A stretch of DNA of 64,000 bases, from NCBI GenBank assembly GCA_965216315.1, contig CBDCFN010000015.1, positions 288,001-352,000 on the forward strand. The letters are read 5' to 3'. Numbering within the stretch: the stretch's first letter is position 1; each line of letters opens with the position of its first letter. The notes under the pieces were generated by a model, which saw only the letters and a list, made by a program, of their open reading frames with translations, had not been told where the DNA came from and made no database searches. The position numbers and the translations under genes were made by a program. Positions 41,728 through 62,922 of this stretch are shown here, one piece after another. The DNA comes from a bacterium (GTDB lineage Bacteria > UBA10199 > 2-02-FULL-50-16 > JAJFLM01).

Positions 41728-41731
41728 ATGC

Positions 41732-44442: not shown

Positions 44443-45831
44443 ATGAGCGACTTAGCTGCTATGGATACAATTGCTGCCATTGCGACGCCACCGGGGGAAG
44501 GCGGCGTGGGGATCATCCGGATCTCCGGAGCGGAGGCGCCCGCGATCGCCCAGCGAGTCTGGCGGGGCAAGCGGTCCGTCGCAGACTTTGAATCGCATCG
44601 GTTCTACTACGGAGAAATTAGGTCACCTGCTGCCAGCGAGGACAGGTGTCTCGATAATGCGATGATCGTCTGGATGCAGGCCCCTCACTCCTATACCGGC
44701 GAAGACGTTGTCGAGCTCCAGACCCACGGGGGTCCCACCTTACTCCAAGAAATCCTCAAGCAGGTGATCGCGGCGGGGGCGCGCCTGGCGCGGCCCGGCG
44801 AGTTCACGGAACGCGCCTTTGTCAATGGCCGCCTGGACCTGACCCAGGCCGAGGGGGTCGCGGACCTTATCCACGGCCAGTCCGAGCTTGCTCTCCAGCT
44901 CGCTCAAGACCAGCTTAGTGGAAGACTTACGGAGGAGATTGCCCGCATCCGTCGGGAGCTCGTCGTGATGCGGGCACAGCTCGAAGCGATGATCGATTAC
45001 CCTGATGACGAGGATGTCAATGTCTTGCGCCATGAAGAGGTCGCCGAACGCGCGGAAACCGTGGCTTCGCGGCTGGGGACGTGGCTCACGCACTACGATG
45101 AGGGGCGCTGGCGGCGCGAAGGCCTGCGGGTCGTGCTCGTCGGCCGACCGAACGTCGGCAAATCGTCCCTCTTAAATTGCCTTCTGAGCGACGATCGCGC
45201 CATCGTCCATAGCCGGGCCGGGACAACGCGCGATGTTGTTACCGAATCGGTAAAACTGGGCGGTATCCTGGTAAAGTTGAGTGATACCGCCGGTTTACGT
45301 GAAGGGGAAGGAGAGGTTGAGGCCGAGGGTATTCGCCGCAGCTGGCAGGAAGTCGAGCGCGCGGACCTCGTGATCTTTGTCAGGGACCGCAGCCAAGCCA
45401 CGACGGATGAGGATCAGCGCTTGTACCAGGAGATCGCGGGGAAGCCACATTTAATTGTTTTGAATAAGAATGATTTGCCATCGGCAGCGGGAGTCGATGA
45501 GAATACTCAAGCCTGTCATCGGACCCTCGAACTCTCGGCCAAGACCGAAACAGGTCTCCCGGCGCTGAAGCAGGCCATCATTGATTTTGCGCTCCCGCAT
45601 GGTCGCGCGAGCGATCAAATTTTCATTGCCAACCTGCGTCATAAGACCTGTTTGGAGGCCTGCGTCGCGGCCCTCCAGGAAGTAAAACGTAGTGCTGAGG
45701 CCGAAGCCGGCCTGGAACTGCTGGCCGCCGACCTCCTTGTCGCCGCCAACCACCTAGGTGAGATTACGGGAGAGATCACCAATGATGAGATCCTCTCCGA
45801 GATCTTCTCGCGATTCTGTTTGGGGAAGTAA
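44443..45831 (+). CDS. mnmE: tRNA modification GTPase MnmE
   Basis: DTIAAIATPPG, SYTGED, GRPNVGKSS, DTAG, NKND, IFSRFCLGK. Confidence 0.98.
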   Translation: MSDLAAMDTIAAIATPPGEGGVGIIRISGAEAPAIAQRVWRGKRSVADFESHRFYYGEIRSPAASEDRCLDNAMIVWMQAPHSYTGEDVVELQTHGGPTLLQEILKQVIAAGARLARPGEFTERAFVNGRLDLTQAEGVADLIHGQSELALQLAQDQLSGRLTEEIARIRRELVVMRAQLEAMIDYPDDEDVNVLRHEEVAERAETVASRLGTWLTHYDEGRWRREGLRVVLVGRPNVGKSSLLNCLLSDDRAIVHSRAGTTRDVVTESVKLGGILVKLSDTAGLREGEGEVEAEGIRRSWQEVERADLVIFVRDRSQATTDEDQRLYQEIAGKPHLIVLNKNDLPSAAGVDENTQACHRTLELSAKTETGLPALKQAIIDFALPHGRASDQIFIANLRHKTCLEACVAALQEVKRSAEAEAGLELLAADLLVAANHLGEITGEITNDEILSEIFSRFCLGK

Positions 45832-46024: not shown

Positions 46025-46050
46025 CAACTTACGCACTGCGTTGACGATAG
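46025..46050 (+). promoter_or_regulatory. Recurrent promoter motif CAAC-N16-CGATAG
   Basis: ATG 46057 lies 12 nt after the C of CGA. Confidence 0.75.
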
Positions 46051-46056: not shown

Positions 46057-47064
46057 ATGTTTATCGCGGTGTCGGGTCACACCTTCGTGGGGATGGCGTC
46101 CGCCCTGAGTCCGCTTGTCTTGGCGAGTGGGTTGCAAGCAGAGGGTCTCCCCAATCAATTGAATCAAGCGTCGGGTTTTGCCCGTAAGACGCGGCCGGAT
46201 GTTACCTTACATCAACTTGCTGCGCCCACCGAAATGTTGATTCCGGAACCGGTCGCGTCTGAGGCGGGACCGGACGGGAGAATCGAAGTGCTCGCGGCCG
46301 GGTTGAGTCTGTGCTGCAGCGGTTGTGAGACCGGGATGACCCTCGTGCTCCCTGTGTTGACGGGGGCCGTCTTGTTTGGATTGGCGACGCTCGTGATCAA
46401 ATGGCGGTCGCGGGTTCGCCAAGAGCGCGAGGCGATGACCTTTCGTATCGCCCGGGCCCCGAGTCAGATGCGCAAGTTGGATGACTACTCCGACAAGTAC
46501 CGCAAACAGGTGACGGACGCGATTCTGCGCGCGGAGCGAAAAGATCTTGTCGCATGGCCGGTCGTGATGGAGCAGATCCGCGATGGCAACTATGGCAATG
46601 CGATCGAGACGCTGGCGACCCGACTGAAGCCTCAACTTAAAGCCGCGGAGCGCGAACGCTTGCTCCCCTTTGGACTCGCATTGGCGGCGGCTTATAAAGG
46701 CGGCAAAGAAGGGGCGTCGTTACCGTTCGGCACCTTTAATTTACTGAAGGATTTTTTTAATGAGCGTGAGGGGGTTGCGGAGGAACAGGCCCGCCAGAAT
46801 GCCATTGATCGCTTCTGGCTCGACCTGCTCCAATACTTTGTCTTCGGCATTCATATGGAGGGAATCGCCGCTGCGCGCGTCGGTGAAATCAAGACGATGC
46901 GGAGTAAAGGCCGGATCCCCTCGAATGAGAAGATGCATCGGGCCTTCCAGCGCTGGCTGGATGCCCTCGAGCCGGAACCCGATCCCAAGGTGCGCTTGCG
47001 GGACCTGCCCCTCTATCGCGACTTTGCCCAGGCGCTTAAGCGCCATTTGAACGGGCGCGCTTAA
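46057..47064 (+). CDS. Orphan protein with one internal TM segment
   Basis: Charge-poor N-terminus; TM segment LVLPVLTGAVLFGLATLVIKW. Confidence 0.7.
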   Translation: MFIAVSGHTFVGMASALSPLVLASGLQAEGLPNQLNQASGFARKTRPDVTLHQLAAPTEMLIPEPVASEAGPDGRIEVLAAGLSLCCSGCETGMTLVLPVLTGAVLFGLATLVIKWRSRVRQEREAMTFRIARAPSQMRKLDDYSDKYRKQVTDAILRAERKDLVAWPVVMEQIRDGNYGNAIETLATRLKPQLKAAERERLLPFGLALAAAYKGGKEGASLPFGTFNLLKDFFNEREGVAEEQARQNAIDRFWLDLLQYFVFGIHMEGIAAARVGEIKTMRSKGRIPSNEKMHRAFQRWLDALEPEPDPKVRLRDLPLYRDFAQALKRHLNGRA

Positions 47065-48067
47065 GCATAAAGGCGACATTCTCATGGCAGTTGATCGGAT
47101 CGATCTTGATCTCCGGATGCCGGGTGGCAAAGACGCGGAAGATCTCATCGGCAAAGCCCTGGCCGATCGTCGTGACCCCTTGAAAGTCGAGGGTGATTTC
47201 CTTGAATTCATCCAGGGCATGGACCAGCCGCTTGGCCTGGGCGCGGGAGACGTATTCTTCCCCTTCCTGAAAGAGTTTAACCGTGACCTGACTTTTTTCG
47301 AACTGGTAGTCTTCATTGGTGTACGTGCGGAAGATCTCCGTCAGTTGCCGCGTGGCGCGGGTACTCAGTTCAAAAATGACGCGCGTCCCCTGGCGAGCCC
47401 GGATGTCCGTAATAAAAAAATCACCGATGCGATTGTCCTTGATCAGCCCTTTGTGATGGCTCTCGATCGTCAGCCGGTCGGCGACCTTGGAGGTGAAGAA
47501 GATGCCCTCGCCGGAATGTCGTTCCGGTGCCGTCGTCTGCTTGCCCTTGAGCAGGTCCTGCAGGCCTTCCATTTCACTTGCCAGCCCTTTCTTGGCGCGG
47601 ATGTTTTCGAAAATGCCGACCCCCTGGTCGGTGACGTTGAACTGAATCGTCTCGGGGAGCTTGCGGACCGCGACGTCGATGAAGGGCGATTCCGCATGAT
47701 CGATCGCGTTGTTGACCATCTCCGTGAAGGCGTAGTGGAAGAGCGAGCGCGCGTTGTCCGAGAGTTCCCGGAGTAGGTCGGTCTGGGTCTCAAGTTCGCG
47801 ATACACGCGGTCCTCTTGGAGCCCACCCGCACGGTAGCGCTTATGCCATTGCGTCTGCGTGGCGGCAATTTCCCGGATTAGCTGGGGGTCATTGCGCAGA
47901 TAATAGGTCGTCCGCTTACTGGTTCCGAACTGGCGGATGCGCCCTTCCCGTAATAACGCCTGCAAATGCCGGTGGACGGCCTGGCGGCTGATGCCGAGTT
48001 GTTGAACGAGGCCGGAAGTAGTCAGTTTTTTACCTCTTTGAAATTCTTTAAGAATTTTCTCTTTCAT
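47036..48067 (-). CDS. wHTH + HATPase-like + STAS-like (DUF4325) protein
   Basis: GISRQAVHRHL; EMVNNAIDH, DQGVGI, GEGIFF; SRAQAKRL...LDFQGV..IGQGFADEIFRVF. Confidence 0.85.
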   Translation of the reverse strand: MKEKILKEFQRGKKLTTSGLVQQLGISRQAVHRHLQALLREGRIRQFGTSKRTTYYLRNDPQLIREIAATQTQWHKRYRAGGLQEDRVYRELETQTDLLRELSDNARSLFHYAFTEMVNNAIDHAESPFIDVAVRKLPETIQFNVTDQGVGIFENIRAKKGLASEMEGLQDLLKGKQTTAPERHSGEGIFFTSKVADRLTIESHHKGLIKDNRIGDFFITDIRARQGTRVIFELSTRATRQLTEIFRTYTNEDYQFEKSQVTVKLFQEGEEYVSRAQAKRLVHALDEFKEITLDFQGVTTIGQGFADEIFRVFATRHPEIKIDPINCHENVAFMLKRARSNGA

Positions 48068-48138
48068 GTCAACTTTATGTCAACATATCTAATATGTTAT
48101 GTCAACTTAATGTCAATTTATGATAATTTTATGTCAAC
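48066..48138. promoter_or_regulatory. Phased ATGTCAAC direct-repeat operator array
   Basis: Copies at 48066, 48077, 48099, 48110 (ATGTCAAT) and 48131. Confidence 0.75.
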
Positions 48139-48161: not shown

Positions 48162-48187
48162 CAACCTTTGGCTGCCCTAACCGATAG
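48162..48187 (+). promoter_or_regulatory. Recurrent promoter motif CAAC-N16-CGATAG
   Basis: Lies at the head of the co-oriented gene run 48243-57490. Confidence 0.75.
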
Positions 48188-48204: not shown

Positions 48205-48237
48205 ACTCTTTCACTGTCGTGGGGACAGGAGGAGGAG
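48205..48237 (+). repeat. Conserved 5'-UTR hairpin/RBS element, copy 1
   Basis: ACTCTTTCA-CTGTC-GTGGG-GACAG-GAGGAGGAG. Confidence 0.85.
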
Positions 48238-48242
48238 ACCCC

Positions 48243-48701
48243 ATGGGAGATTTTTTCAGTAATCTTGCAGACGTCGTCCACATCGGCGGCGGTTATCGCT
48301 TACAACTCGATGATCCGATTGAGCCGCATCGCGCGACGGCCAACGTCCATGTCGGCGGGACCAGTAATTGGCGGGGGCCGGGCCTGACCTTCGGCCTCGA
48401 TGGCGGCATCGATAGCGCGGGCGAAGGGCGCGTCGGCGCTCGCGTTGGTTTTGGCGGTCCACTTCATCTCATCCTGTGGGGTGATATCGCCGCGCAGGCG
48501 GGGGCCCACCTGCAGGATACTCAGACCGGTTTTGAAGCCGGCGCCTATACCGGCGTCGTCGGTCGCTTGCTCGCTTTGACGCCAGTCGGGCTGATCGGTC
48601 TGCAGGGTGAGGTCAATGCCGGCAACCTCGGCAACGGGGATGCCCAATTGGAACTCGGGGTCCAACTGATCTGGGGAACCTCGTTTAGCCTCTGGCTCTA
48701 A
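48243..48701 (+). CDS. Small Gly-rich beta-barrel-like protein with no signal peptide
   Basis: Alternating Gly/hydrophobic strands; strong SD before ATG 48243. Confidence 0.65.
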   Translation: MGDFFSNLADVVHIGGGYRLQLDDPIEPHRATANVHVGGTSNWRGPGLTFGLDGGIDSAGEGRVGARVGFGGPLHLILWGDIAAQAGAHLQDTQTGFEAGAYTGVVGRLLALTPVGLIGLQGEVNAGNLGNGDAQLELGVQLIWGTSFSLWL

Positions 48702-48709
48702 ACCGTAGA

Positions 48710-48743
48710 ACTCTTTCACTTGTCATGGGGACAAGAGGAGGAG
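48710..48743 (+). repeat. Conserved 5'-UTR hairpin/RBS element, copy 2
   Basis: 34 nt identical to 61942-61975. Confidence 0.9.
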
Positions 48744-48748
48744 AACTC

Positions 48749-49273
48749 ATGTTCAACACGCTTTCCAATCAATTAATGTCCATGGTTCGCGTCAGCGTCT
48801 TGGGCCTGGCCGGTTTGACGGCTTCGGCATGCTCTTGTAGCGCTGTGGAGAACCCGCCACCGGATGCCGCCCTTAGCGACGGGAATGTGTCAGACTCCGG
48901 TCTCCTGATGGGACCATCGACCAACCTAATCGAGGCCGTGTGCGGCAAGCTCTCCGCCTGCTATCCCGAGATGGATCTGGAGGCCTGTCGAACGGCCCTG
49001 GCGGGCGAGCCCGGCCGCCAGATCTGGGATGAATTCGGCGCGCCGGAGAATCGCTATAATGCCATGGAGCTGAATTCCGCAGTGCGCAGCGGGGACTTGC
49101 TGGTCAGTGATAGTAATCTGGGCGCCTGTGTCGATGCGATCGGTGCGCTTACATGTGCAGATCTAATCGGTGAACCGTGGTCGAGCCGCAATCCGGATGA
49201 TTTTGGCAACGTTGAGAATACGCTCGGTAGTGACGTGGTGCCTGCCTGTGGCGACGTTTTCGCGAGCAGATAA
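48749..49273 (+). CDS. Cys-rich putative lipoprotein
   Basis: Lipobox-like VSVLGLAGLTASAC; paired Cys helices (VCGKLSAC, ACVDAIGALTC). Confidence 0.7.
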   Translation: MFNTLSNQLMSMVRVSVLGLAGLTASACSCSAVENPPPDAALSDGNVSDSGLLMGPSTNLIEAVCGKLSACYPEMDLEACRTALAGEPGRQIWDEFGAPENRYNAMELNSAVRSGDLLVSDSNLGACVDAIGALTCADLIGEPWSSRNPDDFGNVENTLGSDVVPACGDVFASR

Positions 49274-49288
49274 AAACAGTGTTCTACG

Positions 49289-50926
49289 ATGTTTCAGTGC
49301 GCCCTCAATAGCCTGTCGACCACCCTCGCCGCGAGTGCGGTGGGCACGATTGGTACGAGTTACCTCAGTCAGTTTATGAACCCGGTGGACCCGATGATCA
49401 TGCCAACTCCAGGGGATTCTTATTATTGCTCGGTCCAGAGTGGCGACGAGGGTGGCGGTTCCAATCCGGCTCAGCGGTCATCTGTTGCCAGCTCTCTGTG
49501 GCTGCTCCGGCCGCGGAGCGAAATGACTTCCCTGTTGCGCGCGATGGCGGCGCAGCATCAAGTCACCTTTGATGTCTGGCTGGCCCGGATCCTGAAAGCG
49601 GCCGATGGCGAGGAAGTGTGCCGTCTGTTCGATCGTATCGAGCTTCGTGCAAATGCCAGCGACTGGCCGGAACCGGTGCGGACCTACGACCGGCAGGGCC
49701 GGGCGGCCGATACCATCCGCGCCTTCAAACTGGCCGGCGGCGTTCCTCTCTTACGGGACATCCTCGCAGACACCTCACACCCCTACCGGTGGCAGGCGAT
49801 TCGCGCCATTATTAGCCTGCAAGAGGCCGGGCTCCTGACAGCGACACAACAGCATGAGTTCATTCGCCCGCTGGCCGCGATGCTCCGTTCATTCTTGGAG
49901 GATCCCCGCGATAGTACGGATGGTCATGGGCTCTCGTTTGCCCTTCGGGCCCTCGGTCTGCTGGGCGCCCGCGAGGCGATTCCGGATCTCCAAGCGCTTT
50001 TCGACCTGCTCGCCGGAGTCGATGATCACACCAACAGTCTTCCGGCCCTTCTCCTACTCGCTCTCGGCACCTTGCGGGCCGCTTCCGCGCGACCGGCACT
50101 GCTGCGCTTGGCGGGAGCCGCGCAGTCACGACTGTATCGCGAAGCCATTATGGGGCTGGCGCATTTCGATGACGATGAAGCGAGCAGCCGTCTCGTCGGT
50201 CTGTTGGCCCATCCCAACCATGACATCCGCGCGCATGCGGCGCAGGCGCTCGGTAGGGCCGGTGCCCGGGAAGCGATCCTCTTATTGCAGACAGCCCTGC
50301 ACGACCGGCATGATTTAGTCCGGCTCTACGCCGCTCAAGCCTTGGTAAGATTAGGCGTATTTGATGCGGCCGTGGCTGTGTTGTGTCACTTAGCAACGAG
50401 TGAATCCACATATCTTCAGTTTCGCCTCGATGCCCTGGATACATTAGGGGCCTCTGCGGACCCCGAGATTGAGGAAACGCTACAACGGGCCTTCTTGAAT
50501 CCCGGCGAGCAACTCAATGCGCGGGCGCAAGAGTATGTTCGCTACCACGCGGCCTGCGCATTATTGCAACACGGCATTCGGGCGCCGCTCCCGTATTTGT
50601 TGGCTTTTCTTCGCGATCCTCAGCTGGATTCAAGTGCCGAGGTGTCATGGCGTTTCGCCGGTCAGACCGTTAGAAGACGCGTTCCGTTGCTGGTCAGCGA
50701 CGGTTTGCGCGTGACGACCATCCAGCATTTGAGTCGCGCGCACGTCCACGCAGCCGTTTCTTCCCTGAGAGGGTTCTTGAACTATCGCGGCCGCCAGATT
50801 GGTCAGGCCTGGGTGGGAGGGCTGGAAGTCAGAGCCGCGGCCGCCGCGGCGCTCGATCGGCTCGACCCGGGCTGGGACAAGCGCATGATGCGCGAATGGC
50901 GGGATTTCAATGGAGGTGTTCGATGA
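49289..50926 (+). CDS. Leader-family protein with HEAT (PBS-lyase-like) repeats
   Basis: N-terminus CALNSLSTTLAASA...YLSQFMNPVDPMIMPTP...YYCS; repeats such as IRAHAAQALG and VRLYAAQAL. Confidence 0.85.
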   Translation: MFQCALNSLSTTLAASAVGTIGTSYLSQFMNPVDPMIMPTPGDSYYCSVQSGDEGGGSNPAQRSSVASSLWLLRPRSEMTSLLRAMAAQHQVTFDVWLARILKAADGEEVCRLFDRIELRANASDWPEPVRTYDRQGRAADTIRAFKLAGGVPLLRDILADTSHPYRWQAIRAIISLQEAGLLTATQQHEFIRPLAAMLRSFLEDPRDSTDGHGLSFALRALGLLGAREAIPDLQALFDLLAGVDDHTNSLPALLLLALGTLRAASARPALLRLAGAAQSRLYREAIMGLAHFDDDEASSRLVGLLAHPNHDIRAHAAQALGRAGAREAILLLQTALHDRHDLVRLYAAQALVRLGVFDAAVAVLCHLATSESTYLQFRLDALDTLGASADPEIEETLQRAFLNPGEQLNARAQEYVRYHAACALLQHGIRAPLPYLLAFLRDPQLDSSAEVSWRFAGQTVRRRVPLLVSDGLRVTTIQHLSRAHVHAAVSSLRGFLNYRGRQIGQAWVGGLEVRAAAAAALDRLDPGWDKRMMREWRDFNGGVR

Positions 50927-52620
50927 CGTTTACTTGTGCCCTGAATACTTTGCCGACCACCCTCGCCGCGAGTGCGAGCATCTTGACGTCTCCGCGCGCC
51001 GTCGATTTCTTGGAGGCCTTTCAGGCCGATCCGGTCAATGGCCAATTAATAGTACCGATTCTTGCGGGAGATGCCAGCACAGCCACTCAAGATCGCTTTC
51101 ATGCGGAACCTTTTGCGGTAGAAAATTTCGCCGCCGTTCATGCGACCGTCACGACGTTGATCGCAGCCCTGCAAAAGCTCTGTGCCGGTCAGCAACGCTG
51201 CAGACTCATATTTGATGAGGTGTACCCGGGGGTTGCCCCACATATTTTTTCGATTCCCGCTAGCCCTGGAGCCTGGGAGGCTCGGCTTTACCAGGATCAC
51301 GGCACACACGCTGAGAGCTATTGGCTAGATTTCTTAAGGTCGGGACGCAAAGTAAGCATCACACTTCAGTATTCTGGTCAGCGGTACTTCGACACGGACA
51401 AGATCATGCTGTTCGGCGACATCTCGTCAGCAAGTATTGAGGTTGACGTCAGCTTTGCCCAGCCCGGGATGCGCGCCGCCCAGAACTCCCGGATGCATTA
51501 CTCCGATTCAAAAAGTAGCTCAGCGTATCTTTTACTATTTCAAGGCTCTCATCTTGATAGCTTGCGCCAGTTTTTGGGGATGGATTTATCACAAGCCTTG
51601 CCGGAACTGTCCGCCGAACTGGTCGAACACTTGGACTATGATCAATATGAAGACTCCGATGATGGCAACCGAAGCTTTTTCTACGATCATTATTCAAGCA
51701 TTGTCACACCCGATCAGCGGGTCACGGTCAGCTGGAATACAGACGATGAACTCGAAGAACCTGATGCCTATGGTCGAGTCCAAACGGAAGAACTCGGCGT
51801 GCAAATAGCTGCAGGAAGCGACGCGGCATCCGCTTTGCGTGACACAGAACGCCAGCTATGGGACTGGGTTCATCACCAAAAGGAGCCAAATCAAGAATTT
51901 CTGGAGTTTCAAGCCCAGTGTCAACGTATCAAGACTCTGCTATTCGCCTCCGGCGTTTTTCCACCAGACCATGCCCTGATAAGCGACCTCAGCGCCCCTA
52001 GCCATCCCGTATGGCATCTGGATGCCGAGAACATGGGGCATGTGCTAGGAGATATATTAAGTCGTATTTACCGTTCTCTCGAAGGATTTGAGTCCGCCGC
52101 CGCGGTTGCGCTCTATTGCCAGTTGCTCCAAGACCCAAAGCTGGGGCTGAGTGATGCTGAAAGTATTGAATATGTCATAGAGCACCTCTTGAATAATCCT
52201 CAAGCAGAGAGTCCTCCGCTGTTTGCAAAGGAAGCTGCACGGTTTCGCATTCTGCGTGCCCTCGTACCGCACCTAGTTCGGAACAACGCGACATACGGCC
52301 TTCTAGATATGCTAAGCGATTTGACATACAGCGCCCTGTTGAAAACCACGTGGTTTCAAGACCACAAAGCCGCTCAGCTCAAACCGCTGGAGGCTTACCC
52401 ACTCAATCCAACAAGAAGCGAAGCCTGGCGCCTGCTGATGGCTGAGATGGATCCGGCAGAACTACTCACGGAGGTCTTAGCCATTTGGACGGAGATAAGC
52501 GAAGAGATATTGCTATACCGTACAGTCGATGAAACCGAACGGGCCCGATTGAACGAAAAATATGAAGCCATGAAAACCTGGCTGACCTTGTGCCTGACAG
52601 GCCAGGGAGGTGAGTCATGA
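50923..52620 (+). CDS. Leader-family protein with shared 'domain X' and helical C-terminus
   Basis: GGAGG SD and ATGA overlap at 50923; MTFTCALNTLPTTLAASA. Confidence 0.82.
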   Translation: MTFTCALNTLPTTLAASASILTSPRAVDFLEAFQADPVNGQLIVPILAGDASTATQDRFHAEPFAVENFAAVHATVTTLIAALQKLCAGQQRCRLIFDEVYPGVAPHIFSIPASPGAWEARLYQDHGTHAESYWLDFLRSGRKVSITLQYSGQRYFDTDKIMLFGDISSASIEVDVSFAQPGMRAAQNSRMHYSDSKSSSAYLLLFQGSHLDSLRQFLGMDLSQALPELSAELVEHLDYDQYEDSDDGNRSFFYDHYSSIVTPDQRVTVSWNTDDELEEPDAYGRVQTEELGVQIAAGSDAASALRDTERQLWDWVHHQKEPNQEFLEFQAQCQRIKTLLFASGVFPPDHALISDLSAPSHPVWHLDAENMGHVLGDILSRIYRSLEGFESAAAVALYCQLLQDPKLGLSDAESIEYVIEHLLNNPQAESPPLFAKEAARFRILRALVPHLVRNNATYGLLDMLSDLTYSALLKTTWFQDHKAAQLKPLEAYPLNPTRSEAWRLLMAEMDPAELLTEVLAIWTEISEEILLYRTVDETERARLNEKYEAMKTWLTLCLTGQGGES

Positions 52621-53780
52621 TCGGTCTGAGTCACATGCTGGCAACACACCTTGCTCTCAACAGTACCCTGCTTGCGAGTACGACCTTTCTCTCGCATTTC
52701 CACAGCACCTTATTGCGCTATGGCATCGACCGTCCCGATGTCTCGATGAGTACAGCGATCAACCGTATGCCTCAGCCACACCGGCTGCTCGGCCGCATCA
52801 CCAAGCCACGACAAAGCGAGGCTGATGCGATCGCCCTCTTCCGCGATCGGCTGCTCGAGAAATTACCGGCCTATGCGGTACCGTTTGGGGATCGCCCGGA
52901 ATGGAATGCCACCATTATCAACGATCTGGCCCAACTAGTACGAAGCAAAATCGACTTGGCGCATGGGCTTCTTGGCCAGCAGAGATTCTTAGTCAGAAGC
53001 TTCACCCCTCGAGCATGGGACGCCGAGAGCTTAGATGAAATCCAGCCGGGTTTTCTCAAGAGTTTTATGGAATACGGTGTTGGACTCGACTACTATGTTA
53101 CTTATTGTTGTGAAGAATTTCGCGAAGCAGATGCCGGTCCTTTCTTCACAGGTGTTTTCGAAAGCGTCGCCACCGCAGCCAGTCGTTCTCGAGCGATCGG
53201 CATCCATAATGTCCTGAGCATGGTGCGCTCACTGGTTTATTTTGGCTTCGCGGACCTTGTGAGTGATCAAGTGAATCCCATCGCCATCATTGAAAAGGAA
53301 CCGGGCACGGGCCCGGAAAGCATCATTGAACTGGTCCGGATTCTAGGCCAGAGCCCATCACCCGACGCCTGCATCGGAGAACTGATCAAAGACTTTACGG
53401 GATATCACTGGCCGGACCGGCCCGGACCACCTGCCAGCCCTTATCGGCCCCAACATGTTTTGGAGCTCGCGCGGGCCATTTCGGCGGCCAAGATCACCGC
53501 ATTTCGACGCGGTTTTTTCCTGGTTGAGTTGCTGAAAATGACGCATTTTCAAGAATGGTGGAAGTCGTGTCAGCAAGGTGTCTATCCGGATCCGATTATC
53601 GCCAGCGTCGACATATTCATTGAGACAGTCATTGAAGCTTCAGGCCGTCGTCAGGCCGGTCCGGTAGTAGAGGAATTATGTCTCCGCTTCAACTCAACGA
53701 TGGAAAGTCTCGTCCAAGCGCGTTGGCAGCATTTTGAAAATGAAAATCCGTCACCTCCAGAAGAGGGGCCTTACCGATGA
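52617..53780 (+). CDS. Leader-family orphan protein
   Basis: ATGA overlap; LALNSTLLAST. Confidence 0.8.
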   Translation: MIGLSHMLATHLALNSTLLASTTFLSHFHSTLLRYGIDRPDVSMSTAINRMPQPHRLLGRITKPRQSEADAIALFRDRLLEKLPAYAVPFGDRPEWNATIINDLAQLVRSKIDLAHGLLGQQRFLVRSFTPRAWDAESLDEIQPGFLKSFMEYGVGLDYYVTYCCEEFREADAGPFFTGVFESVATAASRSRAIGIHNVLSMVRSLVYFGFADLVSDQVNPIAIIEKEPGTGPESIIELVRILGQSPSPDACIGELIKDFTGYHWPDRPGPPASPYRPQHVLELARAISAAKITAFRRGFFLVELLKMTHFQEWWKSCQQGVYPDPIIASVDIFIETVIEASGRRQAGPVVEELCLRFNSTMESLVQARWQHFENENPSPPEEGPYR

Positions 53781-54895
53781 GGTTTATTTATTCCTTGAAT
53801 TGTTTACCTGCCACGCTCGCCGCGTGTATGGCTTCCCCATCAATCGGCTACATAGAGCGCTCACTCAATCCGCCGGATGTCTTGGCCATGCCCGAGCCCG
53901 AGGCGTCGCTTTTTTGTTCAGCCCGATCCGATGATTTGTTGCGGTTAAGTCCCGGCAATCCCATCGGTGCCTGCTATCATGACGGTTCGTTTCGACTGTT
54001 CGGCCTCGACAAATTAACGACCACCGACGTGATCGGAACACTTTGCGATCGAAGGCCGCCTAGCTTCATTTTACGACTCGATGATTTAATTACAATGCGA
54101 CTTGAGAAACGAATCTTTGAGGGACCTGTAAGCGGGCTAGTTCCCATCCTAAAAGAATTCTCACGTAGATCTTGGACAAGTCGATTGGAATATAAAGCGC
54201 TGATGTGGTCGTGCGAGCGGCTCAAGCAGGAAACATCTTTTGATAGCATTGAAGAAATCGAAGTTTTTTTTGAAGCGATCGAAGCGTTTTCAGTAGCTCC
54301 AGTCTTTCCAAGGGGTCAATCACTCGGAGAACTCAAGCTAAGCGTTTACTACGCATTACTAAAAGCAGTGGAACGTTTTCTGCCTATGGGAGATGTTACT
54401 TTGTATAATCGTATCCTTAGAGCCATCCCGGCAAGTTATTATGATCACTTATGCCGGGCAGAAGACGCTATATTCCGCCTGGAGAGCGCCGCCAATTTCG
54501 GTCTCAAGCAGCGACTCCAGATCTTTCAATGTCTACTCGAAATCACAACGGCACATTACCAGGCGCAGAATGTTTTCATGATGGAAGAACAACTCGCTGG
54601 GTTAATGGGACGTACGCGAAGAGGGTTGATAGGCACAAAAAATGCGTCAAGGCTGACTGAGCAAACAGAAATAGTGCACCGTATCTGGCAGATGCTTGCG
54701 AACGTCGATAGTCTTCATGAAATTGTTTCCCAACACCTAAAAGAACTCCTGAATCACATTGAAAACGGTGTCATTACAGCGCCTCATTATTACGCATCTG
54801 GTTCACGCGACAACGTCATTAAGAACCACAAACTACACGCGGCACTGATCCATATACGTGATACCATGGAAACAAAGCGTGGAGACAGCGCATGA
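53777..54895 (+). CDS. Leader-family protein with 'domain Y'
   Basis: ATGA overlap; YSLNCLPATLAAC...YIERSLNPPDVLAMPEP..SLFCS. Confidence 0.82.
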   Translation: MRFIYSLNCLPATLAACMASPSIGYIERSLNPPDVLAMPEPEASLFCSARSDDLLRLSPGNPIGACYHDGSFRLFGLDKLTTTDVIGTLCDRRPPSFILRLDDLITMRLEKRIFEGPVSGLVPILKEFSRRSWTSRLEYKALMWSCERLKQETSFDSIEEIEVFFEAIEAFSVAPVFPRGQSLGELKLSVYYALLKAVERFLPMGDVTLYNRILRAIPASYYDHLCRAEDAIFRLESAANFGLKQRLQIFQCLLEITTAHYQAQNVFMMEEQLAGLMGRTRRGLIGTKNASRLTEQTEIVHRIWQMLANVDSLHEIVSQHLKELLNHIENGVITAPHYYASGSRDNVIKNHKLHAALIHIRDTMETKRGDSA

Positions 54896-55536
54896 CGTTC
54901 CTAGCTGTTAACCCACTTGCCATTACACCCGCGCTCGCCGCGAGTGCGACGAATATGAATTACTTGTCGCGCGCACTGAATCCGGCGGACGTGCTGGCAA
55001 TGCCGGATCCCAACGTTTCGCATTTTTGTCAGGTGAGTGGTGAGGACGGTTCTGGAAATCCACTGTTGGCCTCTTACGCTCCGGGGCACTTCCGAATCTT
55101 TGGCCTTCCACTATCGACCTCCCAAAAGGCAAATCTACTGACTCACAATGACGGATTGTTTAGGCAGCTCAATAATCTCCTCCAGGTTTCGGTCGCAGGC
55201 CGCGGAGTCGACCAGCTAAAGCCACTTTTGCTCGCTCTCTGTGATGCATGGGATGATGCCGACGGCTATCAGAAAAAGTATCTCGATGAAATCGACATAG
55301 CCATTCACGATATCCTCTCATCACCCGCGGCTTATGCAGGGCTTGATGACATGCGCGCGTTACTTCGCTGGGTTCGACGCTTGCCAAGTCAATCACACAC
55401 CTATGAGACACAGTTGATCGTTTATTCGGCCCTGCTTTGCGTACTTGATGACCGAGATGACTTTCTCGACATGGCAGAGGAAGCCGAGGACTTGTATGAA
55501 CTTATTATGGAACTCGTTCCCGATGAGTGGAAATGA
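54892..55536 (+). CDS. Leader-family protein, shorter paralog of 53777..54895
   Basis: ATGA overlap; PALAASA..NYLSRALNPADVLAMPDP..SHFC; GNP..A.Y..G.FR.FGL. Confidence 0.8.
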   Translation: MTFLAVNPLAITPALAASATNMNYLSRALNPADVLAMPDPNVSHFCQVSGEDGSGNPLLASYAPGHFRIFGLPLSTSQKANLLTHNDGLFRQLNNLLQVSVAGRGVDQLKPLLLALCDAWDDADGYQKKYLDEIDIAIHDILSSPAAYAGLDDMRALLRWVRRLPSQSHTYETQLIVYSALLCVLDDRDDFLDMAEEAEDLYELIMELVPDEWK

Positions 55537-56657
55537 TGAACGTCTCCTCCATCAACTATGCCCTCAACAGCACCGTACTTGCGAATACGATGGGGATGTC
55601 TTATCTCGGGCAGTTCATGAACCCGGCGGACCCGACGGTCATGCCGATGCCCAGGGATGTTTTCATTTGTTCGGCCCACAACGGCGATGACAATGACGGC
55701 GGGGGATCCGCCCCGGAACGGGAGACGCCGACTCTGTTTGACCTGATACTAAATAACAATGAGCGTGATATCGCGACGCTCTTGAAACGCACGGTGCAAA
55801 CGCCGCGACAACGGCTGCGCCAATTAGACGCCGAACTCCAACGCGTGCTCGCTTATGGGGAACCCTTGACGGAGAAACAGCGTGGGCTCTTGTTGTTTCG
55901 CGGCCTTCAATCAACGTGCTGGGATGAGTTGTTTGAACCGGATTTCGAGCAGGTACGTCTCTATGTTCCGGCAGTCAGCTGGGACCTGATGGCGCCGCAG
56001 GGCTTTCGTGTTACTAAGGCGCCGCTGGCGGCGGAAAACAGCGCCAACCTGCTGGCAATGGGTCGAATGCTGCTTGCCGCCGCTCGAGTGATGGATCAAC
56101 TGCGCTTGTGGGAGGCGGGACCGCGGCCTGAAGCCGGCCCGGAACGTGGCTGGCATATCGAGGGGTCGCGGCTCTTGCTCGCGGCGCCTAATGACATCAT
56201 GATCGAAATGGTGTTTGCCGCGGACTGTCGCGCCCTGCGTCTCAAAGTGGCTCAGGCCCAGAACGACGGCTTGATTGAGCTCGCATTGACGCATGCCGTG
56301 GCGGCCGGAACCCTGCAACCCCCCTTGTTCGAAGTCGTCATGGCGAGCACGGCGGTCGACCAACTCAAACAGTATTGTGGCCTTAGTCGAGGCGCGGCGC
56401 CTTTCGATCTTGCGGCGGGGCTGTTGGCACGCCTCCAATTCCGAGTGATCAGTGTCTTTCGTGACGATCAGGATTTTTTCGAGGTCATCGGGGAAATACG
56501 AAGCCACCGAATGCGGATTCGTGTCGGAGTGGCAACGGATCCTGATGCGGGTCTTGGAGTCGAGATGGCACTCTGGTCGAATCCCGGCCAGCGGGCGCGT
56601 CTTCATGGCGAGCCCCTGATTTTTTTGAACTGGATCAAAGGATTGCGTGAGTCATGA
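55533..56657 (+). CDS. Leader-family protein with 'domain X'
   Basis: ATGA overlap; YALNSTVLANT...YLGQFMNPADPTVMPMP..VFICS. Confidence 0.82.
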   Translation: MMNVSSINYALNSTVLANTMGMSYLGQFMNPADPTVMPMPRDVFICSAHNGDDNDGGGSAPERETPTLFDLILNNNERDIATLLKRTVQTPRQRLRQLDAELQRVLAYGEPLTEKQRGLLLFRGLQSTCWDELFEPDFEQVRLYVPAVSWDLMAPQGFRVTKAPLAAENSANLLAMGRMLLAAARVMDQLRLWEAGPRPEAGPERGWHIEGSRLLLAAPNDIMIEMVFAADCRALRLKVAQAQNDGLIELALTHAVAAGTLQPPLFEVVMASTAVDQLKQYCGLSRGAAPFDLAAGLLARLQFRVISVFRDDQDFFEVIGEIRSHRMRIRVGVATDPDAGLGVEMALWSNPGQRARLHGEPLIFLNWIKGLRES

Positions 56658-57490
56658 CGTTGCCGACGGCCGCGACGATGGTGCAATGGTTTCAACCCTT
56701 GGCTGCCTTGTATCTGCGCCATGCGGATCAGCTCGGGATCGACCAGCGCTATTTCACGACGACGGAGGAGGCCTTGCAGCACTTTCGCGCGCGCGCGCTG
56801 ACGGGTGAAGGCGCCGTGTCCGATGAACCGCGCCGTATCGCCCATCACCTCGTGCGGCATTTTGATAGCAACGCCTGGGCGGCGCAATTGAGCGGGCGTA
56901 CTGAACCCTGCCGGCGCGCTCTTTGGGACACGGTACAGGATGCGGCACAGGCCTTCAGCGCCTTAGGGGTGCACACCTTGGTGCGGAACAAGTCCGAGCG
57001 CCAGTGGGTCGATGAGATTGCGGCCTGGCGCGGGCGCCGTTTTGGGGACGCGCTGCACACGCCCTTGATACCGGCTCCCGGGCTAGAGAGGACATCTTTC
57101 GTGGACCAGTTGCAGCGTTCTTTAGATGGTGATCGCGATTGGTCCGATCGCTTCGCCATGCAGGTATGGGTCCATTATATCGGGGCGATGGCGGCGGTCG
57201 GTGACGGCGCAGCCGTGAATCTGCTGCTCAGTATCTATCAGGAAAGCGCAGGCCCGACACCCGGCGATGATCACGCGTTTCGTTCGGTCTTGGCCTCGGA
57301 ATTGGAATGGGTTTCCGATCGAAGGGCGGTGTTGGCGTTATTAAACGAAGCGCAGCGCAAGACGGCGCATTGGAGCAATGTCCTGCGCCAGCGCATCGGC
57401 TTGGAGCTCGGCCTGGAGGCCATTATCGCCACTGAACGGGCGGAGCGAGCCCAATGGCGGCTGGAGGCGGCAGGCGAACCGGGTGACTAG
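56654..57490 (+). CDS. Helical orphan protein, last gene of the array
   Basis: ATGA overlap; lacks the clear ALNS leader. Confidence 0.72.
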   Translation: MTLPTAATMVQWFQPLAALYLRHADQLGIDQRYFTTTEEALQHFRARALTGEGAVSDEPRRIAHHLVRHFDSNAWAAQLSGRTEPCRRALWDTVQDAAQAFSALGVHTLVRNKSERQWVDEIAAWRGRRFGDALHTPLIPAPGLERTSFVDQLQRSLDGDRDWSDRFAMQVWVHYIGAMAAVGDGAAVNLLLSIYQESAGPTPGDDHAFRSVLASELEWVSDRRAVLALLNEAQRKTAHWSNVLRQRIGLELGLEAIIATERAERAQWRLEAAGEPGD

Positions 57491-57533: not shown

Positions 57534-58337
57534 ATGCAAATTATCTATCTCATTTTAGGGGTGGCCGCCTTGGCCTTCGGGGGACTAACCATTTATCTGC
57601 GGGTCAAACGGCCGGAGAAACTCTGGAAACTCAAAGCGATGATCGAACGCTGGGGAGAGGTCCCGGGCAAGACGATCCACATCGTCGCCTATTCCTTATT
57701 ACCGATCTGGGTCGGCCTGGTCCTGGTCTTTGCCGGCATCGGGATTTCGCTTCCGAGCGGGACCCAACAAGCCGAGCTCAATCAGATCCTCGACGTCTTT
57801 AACGCCGGTGATCTCGACGCGAGTCGCACCCAACTCGAGGCCTTCTTGGCGAAACATCCGGAGCACGAAATTGCGCTGATCTTGTTGGGTCACGTCAATT
57901 ATGACCAGGGCAAGTTGGAGGCGGCGGAACAAAGCTACCAGCGGGCGATCACGGCCTCGGGCGGGAAGAGTTTTCGAGCCCATAATGCCATCGCTATTCT
58001 GTATGAAGCTGGGAACCAATTAGAACGTGCGGAAACCCATTACAATAAGTCGATTGAACTCAATCCCAAATATGCTCATGCCTATTCGGGGCTCGCCGTC
58101 GTGAAACTAAAAAATTCCGAGGACGAGGCCGCCCTCAAGTTGGCCCAAAAAGCCTATACCCTCAATAAAAAGGATGCCGTTATCGCCTCCAACCTGGCAG
58201 TAGCGTACCACTACAACCAGAACGTGACCGAACGCGACAAGATGGTCAAGCGGGCCGCGGAACTGGGCTATGCAAACGTCAAGGATCTCCAGCAGATCTT
58301 CAGTGGTGAGTTGACCATCCGCCCATCCGCGCCCTAG
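57534..58337 (+). CDS. Membrane-anchored TPR protein
   Basis: AGGAGG SD; two TM segments followed by TPR repeats. Confidence 0.85.
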   Translation: MQIIYLILGVAALAFGGLTIYLRVKRPEKLWKLKAMIERWGEVPGKTIHIVAYSLLPIWVGLVLVFAGIGISLPSGTQQAELNQILDVFNAGDLDASRTQLEAFLAKHPEHEIALILLGHVNYDQGKLEAAEQSYQRAITASGGKSFRAHNAIAILYEAGNQLERAETHYNKSIELNPKYAHAYSGLAVVKLKNSEDEAALKLAQKAYTLNKKDAVIASNLAVAYHYNQNVTERDKMVKRAAELGYANVKDLQQIFSGELTIRPSAP

Positions 58338-61051
58338 CGCGGACTAAAAAAGGGACTCTCCGATTCTATTTCAGGTTCAGGTAACTGCTTCGTGTTGATG
58401 GGTTCGATGGGCACCGATCCGCCTCCCTCGCCTGACGCACCACCACAACGATCCGGGTTGGCGCGACAGAAGGCATCCATTAAAGAGCTCCCGGGATCAC
58501 CTGCCGGACTACCGGCGCCGCCCGCGAGGCCGCCGCTGCAACAGGCTGCCAGCTGCGTCATGCTACTCGTGATGCCGAGTGGGTTGTTGAGCATGGTGGT
58601 CCCATCACACATCACCGTCGAACACGCCATGGTTTGGGTCAGATCATACAGCAAGTGCGGGGCACAGACGGCTCCAATCCCAAAAGCACCGGTGTTCTCC
58701 TCACAGTAGGCACGGGTGCCTCCTGTCGAGCTGCACGGGTCGCGGTTGATTGGGCCGGGCGGTTGTTCAATGCATTGGGTGAGGCGTTTATGGACAACGT
58801 CGGCGTAACTACAGCCGGATAGACCGCAGTGGCTGCTATCAGCACCGCAACTGAACATTGGGCCCGCGCGGGAATAAATGTCGCGAAGGACGCGATCAGT
58901 CCGTGCGGTATTGGTGGGATCGAAAGATCGGCCTCCCTCCGCGTCTATCAGGCTGTCCAATGCAATTACAATGCTTGCAGACATGACAGCACGCTGGATG
59001 GCTGCTGATCCTTGACGGTAGGTCGTTGCGTCAACCCAGACCTCCAGCGTTCCATCGGGATTAGTCCTGATTTGGAACCCGAAGTCACTGCCACTATCAC
59101 CTCCCACGTGGACACGGATATTGCCATGCGACATATCGTAAGCTGCTTTGGAGATGGCTGAAATAGCCTTGTATTCGAGATTGTCAGGAACCCGTTGTCG
59201 GGGGACCCCGTAGCGATCGGCGGCGACGCGCGCTACTTGTTGGGCTAAAGGCGTGTCCTCGCCACCGAAGCCAGCCGCATCCGCCTCTGCATCATCAGCC
59301 CTATCTTGTACGTCACCGGCCGCCTCTCTCACGGTCTCCTCTTGTTCCGCGCGGACTTCCGGGGGCGGCGGGGGATCATCCTCATCATCCGAAGCAATCT
59401 TCACCTGACAATAGGGATTATTCGCCAGCGGTGCGGTGAATATTTCAACGGGGATGGTGCCACCCAGGGCCTCCATCGTGCACTGAAATAAGCGCGCTTC
59501 TTCTTGATTCGCAGAAAACTTGGAGCCTTGCGAGAGGCGTCGCCCGCGGCACTGTCCCGCCGCATCGAAGCCGGCCTGGCTGTTGCCGTCACCGGAGGCA
59601 CAATTGCCCTCGCCTCCGGTCGCAGTCGACGGATCCAATGCGGCGCGTAGGTCCGCACTCCTTTGCGGGCGGGAAGGGGCCGCACCGGACGGAAAGAAGT
59701 TGTTTTGTGGCCCGGATAGTTTACCTAACTGCGAAATATCCCAATTGGATCGAGCCGTGGCGCCAGAGGCGCCTCCGGAGGCACAGGATTGCGGACAGAG
59801 ATTATTGTTGGCGCTCCGCTGAAGTAGAAAACAGGTGGCGTCGGCGTCGATCCGGTTGAGCAGCCCTTTGTCGATGAAGTCCAAGGGGTTCTCAAGTTCG
59901 ACTTTGACGAGGCGGTCTTGACTCAGGTCAAATAGGACAATTCCGTAGTTCTGAGCATCGAGTGAAAATTTATCGCCGAGCGTCTCGGCCAAGGTCCTAA
60001 TAAGGGGCATGTCTGCGTCAGTGGCCATCTCCGGATTGAACAGCGACAGCTTGGCCCGCAAGATCTCCAAGTTTGGCTGTGGACTGACGGCACCCGCCAA
60101 GTCGTTTAACTGCACGGTCAAGGGCAGCACACCATTTAGATGATGCAGGGCCAAGATACGTCGATCCGATTCGATCAGTTGCTGGACTAAATCCAAGGTG
60201 ATGGCATGATGGAGTGAATTGGCTCGGACGATGTCGGAACCGCGAATTTTCATAAAGCGCTCATGAAAGTCAGAGTTAGCCTGCCACGCGGCACCGATAT
60301 TTCCATGATGATAGGCGACCAAGAAGCGAATCAGGGCGTAATCGATGCCGTTATCTCCCTCGGGAAACATCTCACTCTGGATCTCACCAAAAGGGCCTAT
60401 GCCGGCCGCTGGCAGTTCGGAATAGAAGCGAGCGCCTTGCAGCCAGGCCAGGGTCTCGAGCGATGCTTTCAAGTCGGTATCCGGGGTAATCGTCGCGTCG
60501 GTGGGGAGCTGAGCGAAGAGCTGGCGAATCACGGCCCCGAGTTGTTCCGTCAGCTGACGCTGCTTGATATCGTTTATAGACTCCTCCACGCGGGGCCTCT
60601 CCGCCGTTTCTGTCTTTAGTTCGGCCTCTGGTCGTTTGGCGTCGATAGTAACGGAGTTTTGAGTCGACGTGTTCTTATCTCCGCTGCTAAAAAAGTCGAG
60701 CGGCAATCTACTCAGAATATTTTTTAAGAACGACGACGTTTGCGCTGGTGCTGGCGTTGCGGCGACCAGGGGATACATGTCGCGAATTATGCTGGCGAGC
60801 CCTTGTCCGGCGCCAATCACGCGCTGCCGTTCAAAGTGGATATAGGCGTCCAGGTACTGGTGCAGTTGCTGTAGTGACGTGGGGGGTGCCGCCGTTCGGC
60901 TTACGTCACGTAATGCCATGGGCGCAGGCCTGATTTGTTTGAGTGAGGTTTCGGTTTTTGGTGCCGCACTCAGCGGTGTGGCGGTGAGGCCGACGATGAA
61001 GAGGCTAAGGACCGCAATGAGATACCAACTGGATCGATGAATGTGTCGCAT
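58334..61051 (-). CDS. Large secreted Cys-rich hypothetical protein
   Basis: GAGGAG SD before ATG 61051; Sec signal (YLIAVLSLFIVGLTATPLSA); many Cys in the C-terminal half. Confidence 0.8.
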   Translation of the reverse strand: MRHIHRSSWYLIAVLSLFIVGLTATPLSAAPKTETSLKQIRPAPMALRDVSRTAAPPTSLQQLHQYLDAYIHFERQRVIGAGQGLASIIRDMYPLVAATPAPAQTSSFLKNILSRLPLDFFSSGDKNTSTQNSVTIDAKRPEAELKTETAERPRVEESINDIKQRQLTEQLGAVIRQLFAQLPTDATITPDTDLKASLETLAWLQGARFYSELPAAGIGPFGEIQSEMFPEGDNGIDYALIRFLVAYHHGNIGAAWQANSDFHERFMKIRGSDIVRANSLHHAITLDLVQQLIESDRRILALHHLNGVLPLTVQLNDLAGAVSPQPNLEILRAKLSLFNPEMATDADMPLIRTLAETLGDKFSLDAQNYGIVLFDLSQDRLVKVELENPLDFIDKGLLNRIDADATCFLLQRSANNNLCPQSCASGGASGATARSNWDISQLGKLSGPQNNFFPSGAAPSRPQRSADLRAALDPSTATGGEGNCASGDGNSQAGFDAAGQCRGRRLSQGSKFSANQEEARLFQCTMEALGGTIPVEIFTAPLANNPYCQVKIASDDEDDPPPPPEVRAEQEETVREAAGDVQDRADDAEADAAGFGGEDTPLAQQVARVAADRYGVPRQRVPDNLEYKAISAISKAAYDMSHGNIRVHVGGDSGSDFGFQIRTNPDGTLEVWVDATTYRQGSAAIQRAVMSASIVIALDSLIDAEGGRSFDPTNTARTDRVLRDIYSRAGPMFSCGADSSHCGLSGCSYADVVHKRLTQCIEQPPGPINRDPCSSTGGTRAYCEENTGAFGIGAVCAPHLLYDLTQTMACSTVMCDGTTMLNNPLGITSSMTQLAACCSGGLAGGAGSPAGDPGSSLMDAFCRANPDRCGGASGEGGGSVPIEPINTKQLPEPEIESESPFFSPR

Positions 61052-61079
61052 GTTCAAGTTCTCCTCAACGCTAGATCGC

Positions 61080-61095: not shown

Positions 61096-61153
61096 TGGCG
61101 AAATAATATATATATCTGAAAAATATAGAGTTTGTAAGAAATTTAGACAGAAC

Positions 61154-61977: not shown

Positions 61978-62922
61978 ATGTCTCTGCTAAGCAGTAGTCT
62001 TTCCTTTAATTCGATGGCCTTGGCGAGTGCAGCCGGGTCTCAAAGACTGCTTACGAGCACGGCTCTAGGGCCATGGCTCAACGCCTTTCACTCGCAGCCT
62101 GACGTGGGGCAATTGACAGTTCCAATTGTGACGCCCGATCCAGCTCAAGCCAGTGGATTTCAAATTGCTGCGGTGCCACTGACACGTGGCAATGCAGTGC
62201 AAACGATCAGAATGATTAAGCAAATCTTGGCCGAGTTGCCGCGGGATGCTCATGGGATGCAGTTCAAGTTGACTCAACTGAGCGAAGATTGGGTTGTATC
62301 CTTTAAGATGTTTACATTTTTACCGGTCATGACTTTTAGCCGGCCGGGTCGCCGTATCAAAATTATGTCTAATTCGTGTCGCGATGCAGCCCGTATTGTG
62401 GTGGAGGAGGGTTATGAGGCGGCAAACGTGCGACAATCGGTTTTGATAACTGAGTCTCATCCAAACCGGTTTTTTATTGATAGCTATTGTTTTAGGATTG
62501 AATCCGTGTTGGTGGAAAGTCTATGCACCTATCTCAACCTGCCCACGAATGCTCCTCTTGAAGTCATCGCGCACGCGCTTCCTGCTGAAATCAGCTTTGA
62601 AGCGGGGGTCCAACGAAGCGAAGATCCTGTTCATGAGCCAATGGAGGGAGCCTTAGAGCTCGAAAGTCAACGAGTCGGTCAAACCCTTGGCGTGCATGCG
62701 GGACTTGATCCCAGCGCGCGGCGGCGCGCCGAGTATTCCGAACGCATTCATGTTTGGCTAACCATGGACCCAGAACACGACGGTCGAATGACGCCGGAGC
62801 AACTCAAATTCTGGAACTGGGTCCGATCACGCATTCAGCCTAGTGCTGAGGAGACCGCGGCATATTTGAAGCGTACTGAGGCGCGCTACCGAGCAACGGC
62901 GGGTCATGATCCAAGTGCCTGA
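61978..62922 (+). CDS. Leader-family protein with 'domain X'
   Basis: LSFNSMALASAA; QPDVGQLTVPIV resembles DPVNGQLIVPIL of 50923. Confidence 0.8.
   Translation: MSLLSSSLSFNSMALASAAGSQRLLTSTALGPWLNAFHSQPDVGQLTVPIVTPDPAQASGFQIAAVPLTRGNAVQTIRMIKQILAELPRDAHGMQFKLTQLSEDWVVSFKMFTFLPVMTFSRPGRRIKIMSNSCRDAARIVVEEGYEAANVRQSVLITESHPNRFFIDSYCFRIESVLVESLCTYLNLPTNAPLEVIAHALPAEISFEAGVQRSEDPVHEPMEGALELESQRVGQTLGVHAGLDPSARRRAEYSERIHVWLTMDPEHDGRMTPEQLKFWNWVRSRIQPSAEETAAYLKRTEARYRATAGHDPSA

Follow-up and report, generated by a model that had tools for sequence, protein, structure and literature searches.

What a shared N-terminus does when the protein behind it changes from gene to gene is the question raised by a gene array of an uncultured bacterium (GTDB lineage UBA10199; genome 2.96 Mb, 98% complete). 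The array lies in a stretch of 64,000 nucleotides (nt), here called the window, of which seven + strand open reading frames (ORFs), g1-g7, fill positions 49289-57490; a module of about 55 amino acids (aa), the leader, is common to the N-termini of g1, g4, g5 and g6, and parts or traces of it are found in the other three. In the reading preferred here, to which a probability of about 0.55 is given, g1-g7 would be a lineage-specific family of type III secretion system (T3SS) substrates, with the leader as their shared signal-plus-docking module. The genes are as follows.

49289..50926, + strand: g1, 545 aa, leader and HEAT-repeat body (Pfam HEAT_2, 7.3e-19)
50923..52620, + strand: g2, 565 aa, hybrid leader and orphan body
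52617..53780, + strand: g3, 387 aa, degenerate leader and orphan body
53777..54895, + strand: g4, 372 aa, leader and orphan body
54892..55536, + strand: g5, 214 aa, leader and orphan body of 150 aa; about 80 N-terminal residues common to g5 and g4
55533..56657, + strand: g6, 374 aa, leader and orphan body
56654..57490, + strand: g7, 278 aa, uncharged N-terminus of 21 aa with a trace of the leader, and orphan body

As an earlier note on this DNA had described, six ATGA stop/start overlaps (50923, 52617, 53777, 54892, 55533 and 56654) couple the seven ORFs. Most of the starts are preceded by a purine-rich Shine-Dalgarno stretch. The guanine-cytosine (GC) content by gene spans 0.47 to 0.63 inside this single operon.

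The note had further attributed one charge-free leader to six of the proteins, which is correct in part. The full module, with the pattern Y[LI]xxx[ML]NPxDxxxMPxPxxxx[FYI]C that the note had reported for four proteins, is present in g1, g4, g5 and g6, which match one another in pairwise BLAST at E values of 1.8e-5 to 6.5e-15 except for the pair g4-g6 (0.003); its conserved segment, rich in Pro and resembling short motifs (NPxD, MPxP), leads into a Gly/Asp linker. The likeness of g2 to g1, however, is limited to the first 17 residues or so (81% over 16 aa, BLAST), residues 15-91 of g2 resembling an ORF at 61978 (BLAST 1e-6), while g3 carries a degenerate copy that scores only in a profile that g3 helped to build and g7 looks like a degenerate paralog. 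The first charged residue stands at position 34 in g1, 25 in g2, 34 in g3, 27 in g5, 33 in g6 and 22 in g7, but g4 has one already at R2. All seven proteins lack acidic residues ahead of position 25, a signature that is compositional and not specific.

Conservation of the leader at the DNA level was also borne out: a 19-mer is found exactly at 49321 and 50958 and with two mismatches at 54930, three matches being reached in 0/100 shuffles. Seven codons in a row (T-T-L-A-A-S-A) are identical at all synonymous sites between g1 (49327-49339) and g2 (50964-50976) while the flanking codons differ, which points to gene conversion or a constraint at the RNA level. The g4 ortholog P0003 is 92% identical overall and about 62% identical within leader residues 17-45. 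Contigs of a second sample (runs X4 and X2) show many single-base differences across g4 (window 53968-54859), which fits a co-occurring diverged strain and agrees with the ortholog; the public-run contigs over the locus belong to one study, possibly that of the source sample, and the gaps in X2 and X4 are not interpretable.

Behind the leader the proteins have little in common. The bodies (residues 61 to the end) of g1, g3-g7 and three foreign leader proteins are without similarity at E<=0.01 (BLAST), and an all-against-all comparison of 13 bodies returned only a marginal g5-g6 match (E 0.011) and the family of g2 and the ORF at 61978, so that the proposed architecture of a conserved and always N-terminal leader on unrelated bodies is supported. 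The sole known family among g1-g7 is the HEAT_2 match of the g1 body (68.3 bits, cut-off 27.7); Pfam, NCBIfam and PADLOC gave no family for g2-g7, the foreign leader members or the other orphans, and the ESM Atlas gave no usable match for g6. AlphaFold2 without alignment gave a model of g1 that shows a helical repeat at low confidence (predicted local distance difference test, pLDDT, 49.4) and a low-confidence model of g5 (pLDDT 41.4).

As the note had stated, the leader is not Sec-like. Its hydrophobic maximum (0.86-1.55) lies under the 5th percentile (1.60; median 2.57) for a set of 43 lipoprotein-like signals from this genome and a basic n-region is absent from 5/6 leaders, the combination of basic n-region and hydrophobic h-region that marks Sec and lipoprotein signals being found in none. 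Its first 20-25 residues, Ser/Thr-rich and without acidic residues, have the composition of a type III-type N-terminal signal, a likeness that is compositional.

The leader is also rare. A hidden Markov model (HMM) of five sequences recovered its own five only from 36,659 six-frame ORFs of the genome (next best E 0.36), and one of ten sequences including g3 recovered from the same genome g1-g6 and then the ORF at 61978 at E 0.082. The 93 genomes of the class yielded one convincing match, a single gene in the same family and a different genus (E 3.6e-16), and two more genomes matched at E about 0.005. Among 1,835,955,588 representative proteins seven match at E<=0.001, all at residues 1-56, namely g1, g2, g5, g6, the g4 ortholog and two proteins with new bodies. 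The many matches that the earlier note had looked for were thus not obtained, and the outcome that it had named as fatal, an HMM that finds this locus only, applies by half: the locus is the only one in its genome, yet one other genus carries the leader. The general feature is the compositional N-terminal signature together with a shared promoter, not this leader. Four Ligilactobacillus matches from a scan of genome contigs covered residues 24-48 only and were taken as chance, and a scan of metagenome contigs added nothing real, with partial motif matches only, one of them inside a polymerase-like ORF.

As for a machinery that could export these proteins, the check proposed in the note disclosed a type III apparatus. 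The single FHIPEP gene of the genome has as cluster neighbours an SctD-like FHA protein, SctJ, SctL, FliJ, SctQ, SctR, SctT and several LcrH/SycD-like TPR proteins; the ATPase of the cluster scores above the cut-offs for FliI and for SctN alike, and the only FliA/WhiG-like sigma factor of the genome is encoded there. Searches of the genome for Flagellin_N and Flg_bb_rod gave no match, and the system looks like a non-flagellar T3SS with flagellum-like features. Searches for VipB and Phage_sheath_1 (type VI secretion and contractile injection systems) and for Peptidase_C39 (exporters of double-glycine leaders) likewise found no match in this genome, and FHIPEP is present in 91/93 genomes of the class. 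Directly after sctT (G000:C16:360591-372365, L029) lie unknown proteins of 717, 491, 460, 624 and 601 aa with two LcrH/SycD-like chaperones, a layout that would be typical of translocator modules, though no hydrophobic segment was detected. None of the LcrH/SycD-like TPR chaperones is linked to the leader locus.

The array is connected with this apparatus by a promoter motif, CAACYW-N13-YCGATAR, found at 39 sites of the genome at spacing 13 and at 0-9 sites at 13 other spacings tested. It occurs in 93/93 genomes of the class, with 4-62 sites each vs 0-4 for a reversed control. Its spacing is fixed and its 3' half, YCGATAR, matches GCCGATAA, the -10 consensus given for sigma-28 (FliA) in PMC12784957; the factor most likely to recognize it is the FliA-like sigma of the T3SS cluster. 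Sites stand before the operon that ends in the array, before the leader gene of the related genus and before genes flanking the T3SS cluster near sctT, a common motif that suggests, at the level of sequence, co-regulation with apparatus-linked genes; the 717-aa gene directly after sctT has this promoter and 39 uncharged N-terminal residues. Since no such motif precedes g1 (best site, 6 mismatches), g1-g7 are most simply taken as the tail of an operon that would extend from 48243 to 57490.

The motif also precedes (<=2 mismatches) about nine orphans of the window, among them the following.

22070-22095, + strand: promoter without mismatch; 22105-23334, + strand: leaderless orphan of 409 aa with uncharged N-terminus
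46025-46050, + strand: promoter with 1 mismatch; 46057-47064, + strand: leaderless orphan of 335 aa with uncharged N-terminus

Four orphans had been described as starting with weaker versions of the leader. This holds for the ORF at 61978, g2-like in sequence and with the same promoter and 5' untranslated region (5'UTR) as the operon, but those at 22105, 16898 and 61786, with promoters of 0, 2 and 3 (weak) mismatches, are not alignable to the leader and have only its composition in common.

This composition was compared at promoter sites behind which an ORF of 100 aa or more begins within 110 nt, an N-terminus being scored as uncharged over positions 2-21. At spacing 13 it was uncharged behind 10/34 exact sites (34/39 usable) and behind 25/63 sites with one mismatch (63/87 usable), 35/97 combined, vs 0/23 at the control spacing of 14 with one mismatch (23/53 usable), 1/4 at spacing 14 with the exact motif, and 136/2354 in a crude background set of genes; in G042, a genome from a different family of the class, the first 20 sites listed gave 19 ORFs, 7/19 of them uncharged. 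All these fractions are rough because starts were assigned mechanically, a number of the calls being evidently too long by a few codons. In 21/35 uncharged cases 6-10 nt separate the motif from the start codon, which implies leaderless mRNAs, and the first 25 residues of this set comprise 15% Ser, 16% Ala, 9% Thr and 14% Leu. Elsewhere in the genome, a 40-kb stretch (G000:C16:2161605-2201514) carries more than 12 copies of the motif, before paralogs and large Cys-rich proteins; the paralogs start M-x-C-D-L-Y-G-A-S...C-R-A-N-P-G-T-A-Y-G and form a second multigene family of the same putative regulon.

The interpretation of g1-g7 as T3SS substrates is favored because the leader is not of the Sec type, the bodies are unrelated and the promoter-defined set includes T3SS-adjacent genes, and because no specialised export route other than type III was found. 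The first 20 or so uncharged residues, rich in Ser, Thr, Ala, Leu and Asn, would be the export signal, and the conserved Y-L-x-x-x-L-N-P-x-D-V-L-A-M-P-x-P ... C behind them would serve all these proteins for docking, with a chaperone or the sorting platform as the probable partner. The module would have acquired new bodies through duplication and recombination, which fits the GC range of the genes, the hybrid leader of g2 and the concentration of differences from the g4 ortholog in residues 17-45. The operon would be transcribed from a sigma-28-type promoter, most likely by the FliA-like sigma of the T3SS cluster, and would thereby be part of a regulon in which dozens of genes encode putative substrates. 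We infer the reading of the promoter by this sigma factor, the export, the docking and the action of the cargo; what is observed is how the leader is built, how rare it is and that it is N-terminal, together with the machinery, the promoter motif and the association of that motif with uncharged N-termini.

Several observations weigh against this interpretation. The -35 element is CAACYW (CAACTT), not the TAAA of sigma-28, the best FliA/WhiG-like sigma factor scores 133.5 bits, under the curated cut-off of 189.6, and the regulon also holds proteins with ordinary signal peptides or charged N-termini. Neither T3SS_needle_F nor the CesT chaperone family, which might have supplied a named partner for the conserved segment, has a match in the genome, and no T3SS secretin was detected there, the strong secretin match being of the GspD type and one other match weak (27.6 bits). 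The g1 and g5 models say little on disorder of the leader because of their low pLDDT, and none of the public runs that contain the locus is recorded as RNA. Six consecutive translational couplings, finally, are more typical of the subunits of a single complex than of effectors. g1-g7 could accordingly be cytoplasmic proteins that are never exported, paralogous and mostly helical subunits held on one scaffold by an N-terminal assembly or docking tag, their stoichiometry set by the coupling. The scaffold-type HEAT-repeat protein g1, the failure to find CesT, T3SS secretin and needle genes and a leader found nowhere else in the genome would suit such a complex, which is nevertheless judged unlikely: it leaves unexplained why promoter and uncharged N-termini recur together on dozens of unrelated orphans, T3SS-adjacent ones included, and why a related genus keeps just one leader gene, whose body is small and of another kind.

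Export by another route appears still less probable. In g1, g2 and g5 a mildly hydrophobic stretch leads into an ASA motif, the operon begins with an envelope-type, lipoprotein-like gene and a membrane-anchored TPR protein lies behind it, and the leader might on these grounds be an unusual Sec-type signal cleaved after A-S-A. The proteins would then be active, along with the lipoprotein g0 and the beta-rich product of the first gene, in the periplasm or the outer membrane. Such a signal is hard to reconcile with the low hydrophobic maxima and the lack of basic n-regions reported above, and with a conservation that is strongest past the putative cleavage site; HEAT-repeat bodies are, moreover, unusual among periplasmic proteins. 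A similarly small chance is given to the proposal that the proteins are T3SS substrates in which the segment after residue 20 or so acts in the target cell, as a localisation signal or a host-binding linear motif. Its Pro-rich, short-motif-like sequence ahead of a Gly/Asp linker would be in keeping with that function, as would the lack of a cognate CesT chaperone in the genome, but variation between orthologs is fastest in this very segment, which is unexpected if it fits a conserved host protein. Three other candidates were set aside: a targeting peptide for encapsulins or microcompartments (no shell genes were seen in the window; the genome was not searched for them), a type IV pilin leader (the G/F-T-L-I-E pattern is absent) and a capsid-targeting sequence of phages (no phage genes flank the array).

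Arrangements of this kind have precedents. Effectors of Salmonella pathogenicity island 2 (SPI-2), among them SifA, SifB, SseJ, SspH1/2 and SlrP, are reported to have a common N-terminal translocation domain (a finding ascribed to Miao and Miller, 2000), and they resemble g1-g7 in having a conserved N-terminal region on unrelated C-terminal bodies within one organism. The module described here, however, is shorter (about 55 aa against about 140), takes in the extreme N-terminal residues, shows no sequence similarity to the SPI-2 domain and belongs to genes of one translationally coupled array, the substrates being predicted ones. Terminal reassortment, said to have been described by Stavrinides, Ma and Guttman in 2006 for type III effectors of plant pathogens with canonical injectisomes, likewise fuses an N-terminal secretion region to new bodies and fits the GC mosaic and the g2 hybrid leader, but is here deduced from anatomy alone.

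The apparatus itself may be compared with the "intermediate" or needle-less T3SS described in Myxococcales (Abby and Rocha 2012, PMC3459982; review PMC12428579). Both are non-flagellar systems of a lineage labelled deltaproteobacterial, with no secretin or needle detected, FHA proteins nearby and substrates that are likewise unknown; the present cluster differs in its LcrH/SycD-like chaperones and FliA-like sigma factor and in that the genome has no match to the RcpC marker (Tad/Kil partner). With the late control of flagellar genes by sigma-28, as outlined in PMC12784957, the system has in common the -10 element GCCGATAA and a FliA-family sigma factor encoded with the export apparatus, and the exported proteins would correspond to the late class. 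In contrast to flagellar systems there are no filament or rod genes here, the -35 element reads CAACTT, leaderless transcripts would be numerous and no FlgM-like anti-sigma factor was identified in the genome.

A wider proposal, which is advanced tentatively and is held to be possible rather than probable, extends this logic to the whole class, uncultured bacteria with small genomes: a flagellum-derived export machine, for which this genome yielded no needle, filament or T3SS-type secretin gene, would have retained "late gene" control, with a cassette leader that accepts new cargo. A FliA-like sigma factor would read CAACTT-N13-GCCGATAA, and the resulting mRNAs, leaderless for the most part, would encode dozens of rapidly evolving substrates that all start with an uncharged stretch of Ser, Ala, Thr and Leu; the leader array would be one family in which this signal and a docking segment have merged to form a transferable cassette. 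If true, the complete set of substrates of an "intermediate" T3SS would be predictable from promoter and N-terminus together. According to a review (PMC12428579), the cargo of early-branching, needle-less type III systems is unknown, a gap that blocks the understanding of their role; the locus, the class-wide promoter and the N-terminal signature provide a concrete and testable list of candidate substrates, and the leader is compact enough to be a candidate export tag. The data also suggest that in this lineage sigma-28 control persisted after the flagellum was lost. The concept of a common N-terminus on type III substrates is already known; what is new is the setting, an uncultured lineage with a sigma-28-type, largely leaderless regulon that appears to mark substrates. 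A search of the literature on the lineage and on a sigma-28/T3SS effector regulon found nothing relevant, which does not imply absence in print.

Upstream of the array, and again near the end of the window, the operon and its control region comprise the following elements.

47036..48067, - strand: regulator with HTH, HATPase_c_2 (anti-sigma-kinase-like) and DUF4325 (STAS-like) domains (Pfam), divergent from the operon
48066..48138, + strand: box cluster of four exact ATGTCAAC and one ATGTCAAT, between regulator and promoter
48162..48187, + strand: predicted promoter of the operon, CAACCT-N13-CCGATAG, with sigma-28-like -10 element
48205..48242, + strand: variant 5'UTR hairpin element that pairs the Shine-Dalgarno sequence
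48243..48701, + strand: first operon gene, 152 aa, Gly-rich, beta-strand-like pattern, no family match
48711..48743, + strand: exact hairpin element of 33 nt in front of g0
48749..49273, + strand: g0, 174 aa, Cys-rich, lipoprotein-like signal
61901-61926, + strand: second copy of the promoter
61943-61975, + strand: exact hairpin element of 33 nt
61978..62922, + strand: ORF of 314 aa with g2-type N-terminus

The four exact matches to ATGTCAAC are the only ones in the window, and the boxes are likely a putative operator; similar xxCAAC boxes are seen in the related genus (L022:640-720), in which a homolog of the regulator adjoins the lone leader gene, encoding 161 aa with a different small body (synteny, L010/L022). 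The hairpin element, which pairs the Shine-Dalgarno sequence, has three exact copies in the genome, which precede g0, the ORF at 61978 and a 352-aa protein of contig C16 with a g1/g2-like N-terminus, and one more with 4 mismatches before a 45%-identical paralog of the 61978 ORF just beyond the window end (G000:C15:352246-353193). The stability of the 5'UTR hairpin is unremarkable when taken alone (z -1.75; 8/200 shuffles fold equally well), and Rfam found no family in the window. The repeat is confirmed by public-run contigs, which break at the element and run on into the two other copies.

Downstream of the operon lies the membrane-anchored TPR protein (Pfam), which looks periplasmic because of its two N-terminal hydrophobic segments, and a 920-aa orphan on the - strand (58334-61096), Cys- and Gly/Ser-rich and with a signal-anchor-like N-terminus, converges on the operon end. 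The operon is about 8 kb from dnaA, in the neighbourhood of the replication origin (38869-45831, with dnaN, dnaA, yidC and mnmE), and the GC skew changes sign near 40 kb. Elsewhere in the window there are two Fic/DOC-domain genes (23338-24396 and 62949-63983), one with an HTH_3 protein and the other with a DUF4172 domain, and a 1578-aa fusion protein (7635-12371) that combines a Ser/Thr kinase with TPR repeats, a GAF domain and a sigma-54 activator. Giant genes occur in the class as well, with open frames of 13,507, 3,880 and 3,599 aa that contain HEAT-like repeats in three of its genomes (G008, G034 and G027, respectively).

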